A DNA stretch of 64,000 nt from a virus, in the IMG/VR virus record IMGVR_UViG_3300042922_000836, positions 32,001 to 96,000 of that record; one strand, written 5' to 3'. Within the stretch, counting starts at the first letter, position 1; each line of letters starts with the position of its first letter. The notes beneath the pieces were generated by a model. It did no database searches. It saw nothing but the letters and a program-made list of their open reading frames with translations, and had not been told where the DNA came from. The position numbers were made by a program, and so were the translations under genes. This document shows, piece by piece, positions 14,176 through 20,774 of the stretch.

Positions 14176-14499
14176 ATGAAAAAATATAAAGATTTAGATA
14201 TTGATGAAAAAGAAGAAATAAGAAAGAATGGTCAAAGACCAGTTTCATGTGATAAGTGTGGTTATGAATGGATAATGGACAGTAGAGAATTATTAAAAAT
14301 ATTAAGTGAAAAAAAAGATCCTTGTCCTTGGTGTTCAAGAGAGGCAGAAAAATATATACCTAAATGTCCGACTTGCCAATCCCCTGATGTTAAAAAATTA
14401 ACCAACACACAAAAGGCAGTTTCGGCTGGAATGTTTGGATTATTTAGTGGTAGAGTAAAGAAAACGTTCCATTGTAACGGTTGCGGGTATGAATGGTAA
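14176..14499 (+). CDS. Zinc-ribbon protein
   Basis: Four CxxC pairs; 'PKCPTCQS...GLFSG...FHCNGCGYEW'. Confidence 0.7.
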   Translation: MKKYKDLDIDEKEEIRKNGQRPVSCDKCGYEWIMDSRELLKILSEKKDPCPWCSREAEKYIPKCPTCQSPDVKKLTNTQKAVSAGMFGLFSGRVKKTFHCNGCGYEW

Positions 14500-14532
14500 T
14501 ATTGCACAAAGTCTAAAAAACATAGTAAAAAT

Positions 14533-14568
14533 GAGGGTTTGGACAATTTTCCAAATCCTCTTTTTTTT
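14533..14568 (+). terminator. Terminator of the moron operon
   Basis: GAGGGTTTGGA...TCCAAATCCTC followed by T8. Confidence 0.8.
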
Positions 14569-14616
14569 CATCCTATTAATATTTTGCCACCAGTGACAGG
14601 AAATATATAGGATGAA
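14567..14616. other. Predicted attP of the serine integrase
   Basis: 50-bp site bounded by the perfect inverted repeat TTCATCCTAT/ATAGGATGAA, centred on 14591-14592. The minus-strand core CCTGTCACTGGTG encodes the CHW of the yyaL TCHWC motif. It lies about 360 bp from the integrase stop. Confidence 0.75.
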
Positions 14617-14619
14617 CTT

Positions 14620-14781
14620 TTAGCTATACCCAATAGATAAGAAAACAGGCTTGTTTTCCAGTTTAGCTTTATTAAAAGCTTCAACTCCCCAAGGAAACCA
14701 ATCAACTGGATTATTTGCATGTTGTAATAGATAAGGTGACTTCTCCTTGGCTAATCTATTGGGTATATTAAATTCAATCAC
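14620..14781 (-). CDS. yyaL: 5' fragment (53 aa) of yyaL/SSP411-family thioredoxin-domain (DUF255) protein; missing from the ORF track
   Basis: Manual translation: [56 protein letters not shown] start with RBS AAAGGTGGTG. Confidence 0.9.
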
Positions 14782-14868
14782 ATTAATCACCACCTTTAAT
14801 TTTAGAATAATTTTAATATATCCGTATTAATAAAAATTAAACTAAAATACAATGGAAACAATAAAATT

Positions 14869-14897
14869 ATAATATCATATAATATTATTTCTGTCAA
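14869..14897 (-). promoter_or_regulatory. Promoter driving the yyaL 5' fragment toward attP
   Basis: TTGACA-17 bp-TATTAT with an extended TG. Confidence 0.65.
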
Positions 14898-14919: not shown

Positions 14920-14950
14920 AAAAAACCATCTTATTACATTAAGATGGTTT
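14920..14950 (-). terminator. Integrase terminator
   Basis: AAACCATCTTA...TAAGATGGTTT hairpin with a T run on the minus strand. Confidence 0.75.
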
Positions 14951-14980: not shown

Positions 14981-16501
14981 TTATTTAAATTTTACTTCAA
15001 CTGAAACATTATCACCTATTCTTGTATAAATAATTTTTTCAATAATTGATTTATAACATTTGTTTTTTTCTTCACCTGATAGACTATCATCATTTAATTT
15101 ATTCAAGGTATTAATTAAATTTTCATATTTTAATTCTAATGATTTTATATCTATTTTTTGTTTTTCGATTTGCAAACCTTTTAATTTAATGGTTAATTCT
15201 TCTGATTCATTTTCGTAGTTTTTTTTCTTTCCCATATATTGGTCAAAAGTATAACCACCATTATCATAAGCATATGATACTCTTTCTAATGTTTTTTTAA
15301 TTTGTTGTAAATTTTGATTTATATCAATAATTTGTTTATCGATATTTTTATTTAATGAATCAGTATTTCTATTTTTAAGTTTTTCTTGTATTTCTTCTTT
15401 ATAATTTAAAATGTTTTGATTTAAAATAGGATATATTTCTTTTGTTGCTAAACCACTGTTTGTACATTTTTCTCCCATATGACTTTTATGTTGACAAGTT
15501 TCTATATACTCAGAACCACCTCTAACTCCAATTGACATACCATAACCACATAATCCGCATTTTAATAATTTACTTAAAGGTTTTATGATAATGTATTCTC
15601 TTCTTGGAATACATTTCAATCTTTGTTTATGAAGCATAATTAAATCATGTTCCTCTTGTGTTTTTACTGCCTCATGACAATTTTCAATTACTAACCATTC
15701 ACTTTTAGGTAACTGTTTTACCCCAATTGAATCAGGTTTTCTTTTATGGTAATCTCCTTTTGTTTTATTGGATATGATTTTACCTAAATGAGTTTCATTA
15801 AATAATAATCTTCTAACAACTGTATTAGTCCAAAATTTCCCTTTAGGTGAGAGAATATGATTTTTATTTAATTCAATAGAAATTGTTTCTGGAGATTTAT
15901 TTTCCTTAATAAAAGAATCAATAATAAATCTATACACTTTTAATTTATCATCATTTATAACTAAACCTTTATGTTTATATCTATTTCCCCATTTTTCATA
16001 TTCATATGGATATGGTGGTGTACCATTAGTCCACATTCCTAATTTTGCACCTATTTTCTTTCCTTGAGATAATCTTTTTACTATTTGTTTATATTCTGAA
16101 CGTGCCATAAAACTTCTAAAATCAACTTGAAATTCATCATTATCAATGCTTAAATTATAAATTTGTTGTGGTGTTATAATAACAGTATCAGATTTAATAA
16201 AAGCTTTTTTAATTCTATCTTGATCGCCCATATCACCTCTACCTAAACGGTCAATATCAACTACTGCAACTGCATCAAAATCTTCTTCTTCAATATCTTT
16301 TAAAAGTCTTTGAAATACAGGTCGAGCATAAATACTATCACCTGAACCGATTTCAATGTATTCAACTGTTACATAACCTCTACCATCACATAGACTTTTT
16401 AATATAGTTCTGTGTTTTTCCAAATCTGTATCGATATCACCACGAGATTTTCTTAAATACATTGCTACATACTTAATAATTTTGTCTTCTTTTTTTTCCA
16501 T
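14981..16501 (-). CDS. Large serine recombinase (phage integrase)
   Basis: YLRKS catalytic motif, DRLGR, recombinase domain, CGLCG zinc ribbon, coiled coil. Confidence 0.95.
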   Translation of the reverse strand: MEKKEDKIIKYVAMYLRKSRGDIDTDLEKHRTILKSLCDGRGYVTVEYIEIGSGDSIYARPVFQRLLKDIEEEDFDAVAVVDIDRLGRGDMGDQDRIKKAFIKSDTVIITPQQIYNLSIDNDEFQVDFRSFMARSEYKQIVKRLSQGKKIGAKLGMWTNGTPPYPYEYEKWGNRYKHKGLVINDDKLKVYRFIIDSFIKENKSPETISIELNKNHILSPKGKFWTNTVVRRLLFNETHLGKIISNKTKGDYHKRKPDSIGVKQLPKSEWLVIENCHEAVKTQEEHDLIMLHKQRLKCIPRREYIIIKPLSKLLKCGLCGYGMSIGVRGGSEYIETCQHKSHMGEKCTNSGLATKEIYPILNQNILNYKEEIQEKLKNRNTDSLNKNIDKQIIDINQNLQQIKKTLERVSYAYDNGGYTFDQYMGKKKNYENESEELTIKLKGLQIEKQKIDIKSLELKYENLINTLNKLNDDSLSGEEKNKCYKSIIEKIIYTRIGDNVSVEVKFK

Positions 16502-17303: not shown

Positions 17304-17591
17304 TTATTTTACTTCCTTTCTATTATCTATACCACGTATAGCTTGTGGAACACCATCATTTAAATTACAAGTTATTTTCACATCATTAGAAGTGTTAGAA
17401 TCTAATTTATTTATTGATGCTTTTGTATAAGTAACACCTGTTTCAATTGGATTTATATAGGGTAACGGAGTTGACCAAGGAAATATATTTGGCTTATCTT
17501 CTGTTTCCTCTATCCATTCTGTGGTAGTTTTTTTTATTAATTTTCCATCATTATTAAATTCTTCTATTGTTTCTTTAGTTATGTTTTTCAT
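17304..17591 (-). CDS. Hypothetical protein
   Basis: Likely start MKNITKE at 17591. Confidence 0.5.
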   Translation of the reverse strand: MKNITKETIEEFNNDGKLIKKTTTEWIEETEDKPNIFPWSTPLPYINPIETGVTYTKASINKLDSNTSNDVKITCNLNDGVPQAIRGIDNRKEVK

Positions 17592-18525
17592 TATTTGTTT
17601 CCTTTTCTTTTTTATTTTTATCGTGAAGTTCACGTAATTTTTTTATTATATAATCATAATCATAATGAGGTATTACACAGTCAGTACAGTCTTTCCATCC
17701 GTTGGAGAGAACTTTATAGTTCCCTCCACAGTCATCGTAACAGGATAAAGGACAAAAACAAAACAAGCATGAAAAAGTAGATTCTTGATTCTTTGATATT
17801 TTATGACATGGATATGCTTCACACCAAATATTCTGGAAAAACCTATAAGATCCTTCGTTTATTTTATAATATGTATAAAATTTAACCTTTTTTCTTAACA
17901 TACAAAAGGGTTCATTGTTATATAAATACTTGAATATTTTAAATGCTTGTGCATTTCCATGTATATCTAAAGTAAATATTTTATTAATTTGTCTTACATT
18001 TCCTTGATTACATTTACATTCATTTGTAAAAATAAAATTGATTTTTTCTAAAATGTCTTTTGTACCTAAAATATTTATTTGTAGTTGTTTGTTTTCGTCT
18101 ACATAAATACATCCGTCACCATCAATATAACCTCGTATAAAATCAGATTGATATTGTTTTGGCAGAACAGATTCATTTGGAAATATAAGAGAAAACGTTT
18201 TTTTAGGAATACAACCCAAATCAATTAAATTTTTAGCAAACTCTGTATTATTAATTACAAGTCTATAATTTAAGTATTTATTTTTAATATATTTTGGAAC
18301 TAATGGAGCATTAGAATTTATATCTAATTTAAATTGTTCTAAAATATATTTGTCTTTCCCTTGTAAACAAAACTCTAATTTTATCGCACGAACATTTCCG
18401 TTATGGTAACGAACTGAAACGTTACCATCAGCACATAAAAAACCTAACCAATATGCTTTTTGTCTATTATCTATTGTTTTAAAATAATCGACATTTACAT
18501 TATATTTTTTATATTTTTCTTTCAT
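17575..18525 (-). CDS. LAGLIDADG homing endonuclease fused to a cysteine-rich small (zf-like) domain
   Basis: AYWLGFLCADG and FIRGYIDGDG motifs; C-terminal 'CEAYPCH...CLFCFCPL...CGGNY...DCTDCVIPH'. ATG overlaps the nrdJ stop (TAATG). Confidence 0.85.
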   Translation of the reverse strand: MKEKYKKYNVNVDYFKTIDNRQKAYWLGFLCADGNVSVRYHNGNVRAIKLEFCLQGKDKYILEQFKLDINSNAPLVPKYIKNKYLNYRLVINNTEFAKNLIDLGCIPKKTFSLIFPNESVLPKQYQSDFIRGYIDGDGCIYVDENKQLQINILGTKDILEKINFIFTNECKCNQGNVRQINKIFTLDIHGNAQAFKIFKYLYNNEPFCMLRKKVKFYTYYKINEGSYRFFQNIWCEAYPCHKISKNQESTFSCLFCFCPLSCYDDCGGNYKVLSNGWKDCTDCVIPHYDYDYIIKKLRELHDKNKKEKETNNEKHN

Positions 18526-20774
18526 TAATTGCATCGACTCCAGCCACAGTCTAAACAAGCAATACATCCGTTTTCATGTTTTATTTTACTTCCACATTCA
18601 GGACATTTGTTATCGTCTGATGCTACTTTTTTGATTACGGTTTGTTCTGTTTCAACTGACTTGACTTCAGTAACTTCAAGATTATCATTCACAAATTCTT
18701 TGATTGTTCTTGAGATTATATCTGCACATGATAACCCATCTATCTGATCTCCTTTTGTCTTTGCCTTGCCACAAGCTGGACAGTTTATACCACGCAACTG
18801 GTCTGCAATTTCATCAATTACAACACCTGACCGTAATGCCAATGAAATCATTCTGTTAACCGCACCAATATTGGCTTGACAAATTCCACCCTTGGATGTA
18901 TTTACAAAACTTTCTACTATATTACCTTTATCATCTTTATTTATTGTCAAATATAGAGTACCACAAGCACACTTTTTACAATATGTATTTCCATGTGTTG
19001 TACCAATTTCCTTGCGTGAAACAGGTGTGATTGAGTTATATTTTATACCTTTATCTTCTACCTTTTCTTCGGCTTTAGGTGTTGTAGATGTTGTTAAAAT
19101 ACCTAACCGTTTGCAACCATCTCTGAAAATTGTAATACCTTTTAAACCTTTTTCCCAAGCATAAAGATATAATTGTTCAACATCTTCTATGGGAGTTGCC
19201 ATAGGTAAATTTACTGTAGAGCTGATTGCTGTATCGACATGATTTTGCATAACAGCTTGTACATCAACTCTGTCTTTCCAATTAATATCTGCCGATGAAA
19301 TGAAATAATCAGGACAATCTTTATTACCTGTTACAGCTTGATATTCATTTACAGCTTTGCAATATACATCATAAAATTTTACTTCACCACCGTTTAAACT
19401 TTCGGTTTTACGAGTATATTTAATTGCATATTCAGGTTCGCATCCACCTGTAACACCGAGCATTGTACCAATTGAACCTGTAGGTGCAATTGAAATTAAA
19501 GAACAATTTCTTAAACCATTTTCTCTTAATTTATCAATTTCATCTTCTGTAAAATGTACTTTTATAATTGTACTATTAAATAAAACATCTTTGTATTTAG
19601 GGAAAGAACCCTTTTCTTTTGCTAATTTATTACTTGCAAGAATAGCAGTTACAAATAATGTATTGAATATTTCATCAGCGAATATCTTTGACTTGTCAGA
19701 ACCGTATTTAATACCAAGTTTCATAAGTGCTGTACCAAATCCCATTGTACCAAGTCCAATATTTCTATATTTAATTGAATTCTCACTCTGCTCTTTTAAT
19801 GCATGATTATTTTTATTTTCGTCTATGATTGTATCTAATGCTCTAACAGCAGTTGCGATTGCTTTCATAAACTCATAATTATCAAAGGAAGAATTTTGTG
19901 TATAAGGATCAATAATAAACTCTGCCAAATTCAATGAACCTAAATTACAACAGAAATCTTTCGGCAACGGTTGTTCCCCGCAAGGATTACTTGTAGCTAT
20001 TTCATATTCATTATCAAATTCCATCAGGTTATAATTTCTAAATCTGTTAGTAAACAAACAAGCGGGATCTCCCCAATCATAACAATTTTCTACTAACAAT
20101 TTATATAACTTAATCGGAATAATATCATATTCAACATCATGACCATTGTAATTTTTTACTTCATGTAAAACAACTTGTTCACCTGTTAAATAAAATTGTT
20201 GAACTGCTTTCATGAATTCATCATCAATTTCAAGAGAAAGATTTGCCTTACTTATCTTGCTATCTCCCGCCTTAATTTTGATAAATTCTTCTGCCTCTTT
20301 ATGTCTTATATCAAGTGAAACCATCAAAGCACCTTTGCGTGAACCACCCTGAGATATTACAGAAGTTGTCTGATTAAATAATTCAAGAAAAGGAATTATA
20401 CCATCACTTGAATACCTGTTACCTATCGGAGTTCCCTTTGGTCTTACCTTTGTTAATGATAAACCTTGTCCACCCTGTGACTTATATGTAAGAGCAAGAT
20501 TTGTGTTTAATTCCATTATTCCTGTAAGTTCATCAGGACAATAACCTGAACTATAGCAGTTAAACATACTACCTTTTGAATTTGTATTTCTATTCGATAA
20601 GGCTCTGCCACCAAAGAGAAATTTTCTATTTTTTATTAAGTTTTTTAAATCATTATCTCTCCCTGATACTCTATCGAGCCATTCATCGAAACTCTCATTA
20701 TTGTATCGATATTTCTTCTCCCAAATATCAATTCCTAAAAAATTATCTTTTCCTAACCATTCTTGTACTGTCAT
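18525..20774 (-). CDS. nrdJ: Class II (B12-dependent) ribonucleotide reductase with C-terminal TSCPD/Zn-ribbon domain
   Basis: FNCY, SNPCGEQPL, CNLGSLNL, IAPTG and KGITIFRDG motifs; no beta subunit nearby. Confidence 0.9.
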   Translation of the reverse strand: MTVQEWLGKDNFLGIDIWEKKYRYNNESFDEWLDRVSGRDNDLKNLIKNRKFLFGGRALSNRNTNSKGSMFNCYSSGYCPDELTGIMELNTNLALTYKSQGGQGLSLTKVRPKGTPIGNRYSSDGIIPFLELFNQTTSVISQGGSRKGALMVSLDIRHKEAEEFIKIKAGDSKISKANLSLEIDDEFMKAVQQFYLTGEQVVLHEVKNYNGHDVEYDIIPIKLYKLLVENCYDWGDPACLFTNRFRNYNLMEFDNEYEIATSNPCGEQPLPKDFCCNLGSLNLAEFIIDPYTQNSSFDNYEFMKAIATAVRALDTIIDENKNNHALKEQSENSIKYRNIGLGTMGFGTALMKLGIKYGSDKSKIFADEIFNTLFVTAILASNKLAKEKGSFPKYKDVLFNSTIIKVHFTEDEIDKLRENGLRNCSLISIAPTGSIGTMLGVTGGCEPEYAIKYTRKTESLNGGEVKFYDVYCKAVNEYQAVTGNKDCPDYFISSADINWKDRVDVQAVMQNHVDTAISSTVNLPMATPIEDVEQLYLYAWEKGLKGITIFRDGCKRLGILTTSTTPKAEEKVEDKGIKYNSITPVSRKEIGTTHGNTYCKKCACGTLYLTINKDDKGNIVESFVNTSKGGICQANIGAVNRMISLALRSGVVIDEIADQLRGINCPACGKAKTKGDQIDGLSCADIISRTIKEFVNDNLEVTEVKSVETEQTVIKKVASDDNKCPECGSKIKHENGCIACLDCGWSRCN

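Follow-up and report, generated by a model that had tools for sequence, protein, structure and literature searches.

We describe a recombination site in a 64,000-nt stretch of viral DNA (hereafter the window, bases 32001-96000 of a 137,094-bp virus record), where the phage attachment site (attP) of a large serine integrase adjoins a promoter-driven copy of the 5' end of the bacterial gene yyaL. We propose that this phage belongs to a serine-integrase family of Bacillota, which would number hundreds of elements, that place one arm of attP inside the yyaL reading frame and may rely on programmed bypassing of the recombination site by the ribosome. As a whole, we give this reading a rough probability of 0.3. 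Its parts differ in strength: the site, its target and a selected mini-open reading frame (mini-ORF) with an obligatory stop codon are solid, while the way in which the two halves of YyaL are brought together is more tentative.

The attP site and its target in yyaL

The attP module of the window consists of the following elements.

14981..16501, minus strand: large serine integrase of 506 amino acids (Pfam Resolvase, E 1.1e-17; Recombinase, E 9e-12; Zn_ribbon_recom, E 2.2e-07)
14923..14950, minus strand: terminator-like hairpin after the integrase gene, an 11-bp stem followed by a T run
14869..14897, minus strand: promoter of the yyaL mini-ORF, TTGACA-17-TATTAT with a TG extension, 11 of 12 matches
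14787..14797, minus strand: Shine-Dalgarno (SD) sequence AAAGGTGGTGA, 5 nt ahead of the GTG start, read from the sequence
14623..14781, minus strand: 53-codon phage copy of the YyaL N-terminus, ending FLSIGYS (PF03190)
14620..14622, minus strand: TAA stop, immediately 3' of the Ser56-equivalent codon
14599..14622, minus strand: untranslated spacer made of the stop and the outer P arm, 24 nt in place of one native Thr codon, that is, 21 extra
14567..14616, no strand assigned: attP, a 50-bp imperfect palindrome with the crossover dinucleotide TG at 14591-14592
14533..14560, plus strand: terminator of a plus-strand gene pair, an 11-bp stem followed by a T run, abutting the P' arm

An earlier note on this DNA had described a promoter, a ribosome binding site, 53 codons, a TAA stop, a spacer and CHW codons on the minus strand, and all of them were located as stated. 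The mini-ORF opens with the GTG at 14781 and matches positions 1-47 of 163 of Pfam PF03190 (Thioredox_DsbH/DUF255; E 5.3e-20, 72.5 bits against a cut-off of 27). Fragments carried by 27 other elements are 70-83% identical to it. Promoter-like sites are no more frequent in the region than expected from shuffles (7 versus 7.9), and it is therefore the position and quality of this promoter that count, not the number of such sites. After the TAA, the same frame reads AAG TTC ATC CTA TAT ATT TCC TGT CAC TGG TG; native yyaL, in a relative where it is uninterrupted (L018; loci of relatives carry L numbers and genomes G numbers), reads FLSIGYSTCHWCHVM.

The same note had reported a 50-bp site with perfect inverted-repeat ends next to a large serine integrase, which our analysis bears out. 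The palindrome, TTCATCCTAT-30 nt-ATAGGATGAA, has a single occurrence in the window, at 14567-14616, and none of 100 shuffles contains it. Its two arms of 24 nt are 75% complementary, perfectly so over the outer 10 nt, and the 2 nt between them are the TG of the TGG codon (14591-14592), a non-palindromic central dinucleotide. The adjoining 506-amino-acid ORF has all three domains listed above, and its stop codon lies 365 bp from attP. The ends of the virus record share a 127-bp terminal repeat located within an ORF, which points to a circular assembly of the 137-kb phage. The site is therefore attP rather than a prophage junction: it forms the attP end of a temperate phage of 137 kb, flanked by phage genes both ways.

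Relatives were gathered with a query alignment of 32 integrase homologs, which yielded 80 loci among viral contigs and another 80 among contigs limited to one genome per species. Searching with the 57-amino-acid ORF by tblastn revealed a YyaL N-terminal piece in about 50 of the retrieved loci. Alignment-based scans of viral contigs did find relatives, whereas a scan of the same kind of contigs with the single integrase protein found none; no integrase above 41% identity was seen among the listed phage records, and when the fragment was compared by tblastn with 50,697 phage records, the 1 match was an unannotated 4.5-kb metagenomic record. Extra bases precede the TGY CAY TGG codons in 39 of the yyaL pieces and are missing from 13. 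The 39 junctions found by tblastn form our unbiased set; a second set of 48 distinct junctions was collected by a pattern that requires a stop, so that the unbiased count of stops is that of the 39.

In 24 of the 39 junctions, the fragment, stop and spacer run into the 3' half of host yyaL, up to residue ~690 where the contig permits. These are attR junctions, between element and host. The other 15 continue into non-yyaL sequence that mirrors the spacer, and are P-O-P' sites like that of the window. Two of the 13 pieces without extra bases (L018 and L020) are seamless joins of element to host, and in most of the remaining ones a host 5' piece continues into a P' arm (attL). One locus, L002, carries both attL and attR, 6.9 kb apart. 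Swapping their halves rebuilds an intact bacterial site (attB), IGYSTCHWCHVMERE (...SIGYSTCHWCHVMERE), together with an attP that is 17-of-23 palindromic, and places the crossover within CATTGGTG, which attL and attR have in common around the TG. The attP of the window is homologous to this rebuilt attP, its arms resemble those of L002 and L003, and the window integrase groups in one clade with the integrases of these two loci, which target yyaL (support 99 in a FastTree phylogeny of 70 rows, limited to integrase identities of at least 31%, more distant loci being excluded).

Together, the junctions of the relatives in yyaL, the clade with L002 and L003 and the similarity of the arms make it well supported by homology that the window holds the attP of a large serine integrase predicted to target the CHWC codons of yyaL, with a promoter-driven replacement 5' end. 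Integration into these codons with replacement of the 5' end had been the central claim of the earlier note. It stands for the relatives (24 of 39 junctions, and L002), and no match was obtained for a lysogen of the window phage itself (see below), whose target is accordingly taken from its relatives. A search of the literature, in which supplementary files were left unopened, turned up no account of yyaL serving as an integrase target, nor of a coding gap formed by an att arm.

The host target, ACA TGY CAY TGG TGY CAY GT, is itself an imperfect palindrome formed by the codons of T-C-H-W-C-H-V (T57-V63), which may be the reason why a serine-integrase family settled there. On the other side of the crossover (window 14440-14598, minus strand), the host 5' half left after integration would encode CHWW, not CHWC, and would extend for ~50 codons into phage sequence, crossing the hairpin at 14533-14560.

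Selection on the fragment, the stop and the P arm

The fragments evolve as protein-coding sequence. All but one of the 39 are intact over 46 codons, and among 35 unique fragments the median proportions of nonsynonymous and synonymous differences are 0.173 (pN) and 0.894 (pS). The corresponding rate ratio (dN/dS) has a median of 0.09 and a maximum of 0.23 over the 120 pairs with a finite value, and host copies behave alike. Two loci of one element lineage (L175 and L182) encode identical fragment proteins at 83% nucleotide identity. A dN/dS below 1 in relatives was a check proposed in the earlier note, and it came out in favor of the fragment being functional; the note's alternative of a decayed relic is rejected for the family, given this purifying selection.

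The stop is just as constant. It directly follows the Ser codon in 39/39 junctions, and all three stop codons are used, never TGG; in the set of 48 junctions there are 34 TAG, 9 TGA and 5 TAA. Beyond the spacer, the inner P arm reads ACN TGY CAY in 47/48 junctions, with variation at third codon positions only, and the single exception to ACN is the TCC of the window, a Ser codon. The matching motif of the P' arm is kept in 7/25 only. These P-arm codons are also present in every fragment of the tblastn set with downstream sequence in its contig (L034 is ended by its contig), and the pattern is therefore not a product of the method used to find junctions. We read the T-C-H codons of the P arm as being under coding constraint, that is, as probably translated in lysogens. 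Selection that keeps both the mini-ORF and these codons as coding sequence suggests that the module serves to keep YyaL working despite the attP arm.

A functionless relic, left by an older seamless replacement or by captured host DNA, is thus very improbable, even though decayed fragment arrays adjoin some loci (L004 and L190). Intact reading frames, a dN/dS of about 0.09 and a stop retained throughout all speak against it, as do the promoter, ribosome binding site and start codon retained by the window copy. The relic is further at odds with the divergence between element and host copies at the same locus, whose nucleotide identity is 60-74% (4 loci). For these 4 loci, the same divergence led us to reject the possibility that the fragment is refreshed from the host copy by gene conversion.

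The integrases of L005 and L007 are 93% identical and their spacers 91%, but their yyaL fragments only 73%; that of L005 resembles the fragment of the L002 and L003 elements, which amounts to a module swap between elements. In L004 (7610-12710) and L190 (8715-13243), yyaL 5' fragments, partly decayed, follow one another in arrays of three to four beside an integrase or upstream of yyaL, and look like left-overs of successive elements.

Routes across the spacer

The spacer of the window adds 21 nt, confirmed by count, and the earlier note had attached weight to this exact gap of 7 codons. The arithmetic is correct, but the relatives do not share the number. Across the 39 junctions, the spacer adds 14-54 nt, frame classes 0, 1 and 2 contain 18, 10 and 11 junctions, respectively, and the gap thus fails to stay a multiple of 3 across homologous sites. 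More than one frame class occurs within 6/14 spacer clusters, the frame switches between sister elements, and the sister clade of the window (L002 and L003) adds 20 nt. In-frame readthrough of the TAA, which would yield a full-length YyaL with a 7-residue insert and was one of the options of the earlier note, is refuted at the level of the family by this unconserved frame. For the window phage it is most improbable. Its spacer is in frame and has a single stop, but in-frame relatives often have a second one, the insert would fall between strand beta-1 and the CxxC motif, and a search for a suppressor tRNA found none among the four tRNAs of the phage (Met, Gln, Pro and Lys).

Bypassing, in contrast, is independent of frame and is left standing by spacers of variable length. 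As judged from the relatives, the integrase would recombine with host yyaL within the CHWC motif, at the TG of its Trp codon, and the lysogen would then carry, in order, the phage promoter, phage codons 1-56, the stop, the P-arm spacer, the (T/S)-C-H-W codons of the inner P arm and the host half. A ribosome translating this locus would halt on reaching the stop codon, its P site occupied by tRNA-Ser; the tRNA-Ser would re-pair at the codon just before Thr57, where decoding would resume, as in gene 60 of phage T4. The fused product would hold TCHWC (peptide ...FLSIGYSTCHWCHVMER), while release of the peptide before re-pairing would give a two-chain protein.

Four bypass-like signs in the spacers lend family-level support to this mechanism. 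The codon before Thr57 resembles the Ser codon of the same lineage in 22 start-less lineage pairs: the second base is the same in 18/22 (permutation P 0.0002) and the second base together with a wobble third base in 14/22 (P below 0.0001), P values that overstate independence because the lineages are related, while the first base agrees in 9/22, which is not significant. Triplets that the lineage's own class of Ser tRNA could read are depleted from the spacers (3 seen versus 17.4 expected), whereas those of other Ser classes are not (52 versus 47.7); without the largest cluster, that of the hairpin-type spacers, the figures are 3 versus 10.8 and 33 versus 33.2. An SD-like 4-mer ends 3-13 nt before the putative landing codon, mostly at 7-8 nt, in 17/34 representatives compared to 7.1 in shuffles. 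Finally, a 14-bp RNA hairpin, with the stop inside it, stands at the start of long spacers (fold z -4.98 and -3.62); its 15 sequences have one compensatory pair (UA in 10, CG in 5), zero mismatched pairs and one alignment gap, and its G-U pairs fit the sense RNA only. On these grounds, bypass-like re-pairing may join the halves in the family at large, at somewhat less than even odds, and it is doubtful for the window phage.

A number of observations weigh against bypassing, most of all in the window. Its stop follows the take-off codon directly (AGC TAA), as in gene 60, but the codon before TCC-TGT, where TCC encodes Ser, is ATT and does not resemble AGC. The spacer contains one AGT, a premature, out-of-frame landing site, has no SD-like motif and shows no RNA structure beyond shuffles (z +0.89; 167/200 shuffles fold as well), making it the least bypass-like of the family by its sequence. 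The earlier note had offered a TAT-to-TAT hop, which keeps the native length; however, this pair exists only one codon ahead of the take-off position, where the A site would hold an ordinary AGC and no stop or slow codon.

In the family, full matches of the landing codon to the take-off codon are a minority, the landing codon is often mismatched at its first base (CCG, GCG, TGC), and some junctions match at one base only, such as AGC to TGA; in gene 60 homologs, the codons for take-off and for landing are always identical or wobble-related, according to the accessible part of a preprint (bioRxiv 10.1101/2022.08.31.505936). Shared descent could account for part of the likeness of the codon before Thr57 to the Ser codon, yyaL junctions have no known nascent-peptide signal, and 9/48 junctions have a canonical in-frame start that makes a hop unneeded. 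Nor did lysogens of the window phage turn up: the pattern of P arm and core had 0 matches in metagenome contigs, that of core and P' arm had 0 in metagenome and viral contigs, and the single public run that holds the stretch, stored as contigs and perhaps the source sample, yielded the phage contig only, with no junction at the core. No RNA dataset holding the stretch is listed among public runs. Lastly, yyaL is absent from 4/15 and 4/19 related genomes and is therefore dispensable.

Two other outcomes, each of which we consider unlikely, have to be set against bypassing. The gene may be split, the 53-amino-acid peptide being released and the host half, CHWC included, being translated from an ordinary restart in or near the spacer, with the two chains assembling into a thioredoxin-like domain. 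A stop right behind the last native residue suits a separate chain, and reassembling thioredoxin fragments are known. The in-frame starts mentioned above, with no stop after them, are spread over 5/14 spacer clusters and in several cases would permit coupling (an ATGA overlap in L046, TAGTG in L017 and L186, TAG-TTG in L078) or have an SD in front of an ATG or GTG (L015, L093 and L187); in cluster 3, the start even tracks spacer length, with TAGTG at 17 nt and TAG TTG at 18 nt. A complex model docks the window peptide on the host half of a relative as the central beta strand with a score of 0.91, a mark reached by 58/80 solved complexes and by 2/110 mismatched pairs, while the best of 3 controls scores 0.00. 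The runs agree in at least 99% of contacts, with a predicted local distance difference test (pLDDT) of the partner of at least 87. As the docked pieces are halves of one known fold, the result indicates likeness, not binding.

An ordinary restart thus exists in some lineages. Against it in the family, start codons are not enriched (9/34 representatives versus 12.5 in shuffles), and in-spacer stops close the yyaL frame more often than expected (27 versus 21.3, P 0.007), in several lineages 1-2 codons before Thr57. The window has no in-frame ATG, GTG or TTG, only the near-cognates ATC and ATT without an SD, and a restart leaves unexplained why a lineage's own Ser triplets are avoided.

Alternatively, nothing may be restored: the phage would provide a promoter and a small YyaL-like peptide with a separate role, for instance as a decoy, as an interference factor or in covering downstream transcription, and the host half would go untranslated or begin at Met63 without CHWC. 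The lack of every rejoining signal in the window, the dispensability of yyaL and the many genomes that keep a gapped allele with no return by excision are all compatible with this outcome. It is harder to reconcile with a peptide conserved at the same rate as the N-terminus of the host protein, with the contrast between the coding-like T-C-H of the P arm and its loss from most P' arms, and with the seamless L018 and L020, which show that restoration is what the family does. In addition, the C-halves of 5 gapped alleles are not relaxed on terminal branches (0.07-0.12 versus 0.06-0.39 for 6 intact alleles), though the gaps may be young. Bypass-like re-pairing at the Ser codon is the reading we retain for the family.

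Genomic setting and comparison with known systems

Nine genomes (G002, G005, G019, G020, G023, G024, G025, G033 and G035) have the gapped yyaL only, with no host-type 5' copy (attL) anywhere. A simple attP x attB insertion must leave such a copy, and G033 is a complete chromosome. Gapped alleles occur in 5/11 yyaL-bearing genomes of one genus and in about 10/15 of one family. The close relatives G033 (L188) and G027 (L196/L197) have yyaL C-halves that are 99% identical. Their sequences are unrelated 5' of the crossover, where the intact allele has an 8-kb upstream flank that the other genome lacks. This side of yyaL looks like a replacement hot spot. Isolates with a gapped allele include Anaerocolumna aminovalerica DSM 1283 (L006), Paenibacillus alginolyticus DSM 5050 (L015), Sulfoacidibacillus thermotolerans Y002 (L065) and Alicyclobacillus sp. 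ALC3. In the comparison of L186 (G024), L189 (G035) and L190 (G026), the fragments of two gapped alleles are near-identical in protein to the N-terminus of an intact allele from the same genus and have unrelated spacers. Alleles of this type may be scars of recombination between host and element copies.

G006, G007 and one Ferroacidibacillus genome (L024, L028, L032, L034 and L040) contain six to eight hairpin-type modules of fragment and stop each, mostly away from yyaL, and several copies of the integrase, located on different contigs; the lineage of these elements is multi-copy. That gapped alleles of the hairpin type are inherited vertically was considered and rejected: between species with 69% identity in their C-halves, the fragment is 85% and the spacer 92% identical, with no correlation between the values.

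Around attP, the plus strand encodes tail-fibre-like proteins and an amidase up to 12.5 kb, and the minus strand, from 15 kb, the integrase, a dUTPase and a ribonucleotide reductase. At 17575-20774 (minus strand), the ribonucleotide reductase gene is followed by an overlapping ORF with LAGLIDADG and Cys-rich domains, a layout that may represent an intein or homing endonuclease arrangement.

Dozens of diverged mobile elements show this layout of a stop, an untranslated gap and a return to native sequence. The gap has a clear cause: at a place where the gene requires codons, a serine integrase requires a P-type arm. To our knowledge, efficient bypassing is found in very few systems, namely gene 60 of T4 with its homologs, one yeast mitochondrion and, as a candidate, a Streptomyces phage. 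If ribosomes do hop in yyaL, the family would offer a large natural series of bypass sites with varied lengths, hairpins and landing codons in culturable Bacillota, and the rules of bypassing would become directly testable. If two chains are made instead, it would be a natural split design of the thioredoxin fold. Either way, a highly conserved coding motif appears usable as a docking site at little cost to the host, which is relevant to the choice and engineering of serine-integrase sites.

A replacement gene end is also carried by tyrosine-integrase phages that copy the 3' end of a tRNA gene, and by e14 and phage 21, which insert into icd. As in these cases, the yyaL elements bring a copy of the severed part of the gene and the lysogen would keep the function. 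The join is seamless there, through a long identical core, whereas here it is the 5' end that is replaced, with its own promoter and by a serine integrase, and a stop and a spacer lie in between. Elements with large serine recombinases also interrupt genes, spsM in the case of SPbeta, sigK in that of skin and gerE in that of gin, as presented in the accessible parts of PMC4191935, PMC5499854 and PMC5595907. These share with the present family the type of recombinase and the insertion into a coding gene of Bacillota, and SPbeta is similar in phage size; in those same parts, no replacement fragment is described and the gene is rebuilt by excision only.

The candidate 10-nt bypass in the terminase gene of Streptomyces phage Hau3, with a stem-loop and an SD as candidate signals, is likewise a short phage-encoded coding gap proposed to be hopped (PMC10732093). 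In the accessible text of that report, the trigger is a rare UUA codon rather than a stop, the gap is not an att site, and the gene belongs to the phage and not to the host (PMC10732093). The closest parallel is T4 gene 60. The yyaL gap differs from it in being the P arm of a serine-integrase attP, of 14-54 nt, often with a 2-of-3 match at the landing codon, without a recognized nascent-peptide signal and with a bypass product that is predicted only; the window has none of the RNA signals. In both, the stop comes right after the last decoded codon, and a non-coding gap of tens of nt within the ORF is delivered by a mobile element. For homologs of gene 60, the accessible part of bioRxiv 10.1101/2022.08.31.505936 names a stop codon at the take-off site, an SD inside the gap and a lack of premature landing triplets, and the relatives of the window phage, though not the window itself, have an SD-like motif before the landing codon and spacers free of premature landing triplets. 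The likeness extends to the hairpin, stop included, which is UAG CC UUCG GG CUA in gene 60 (read from the T4 record) and UAG CCC UUCG GGG CUA in the relatives.

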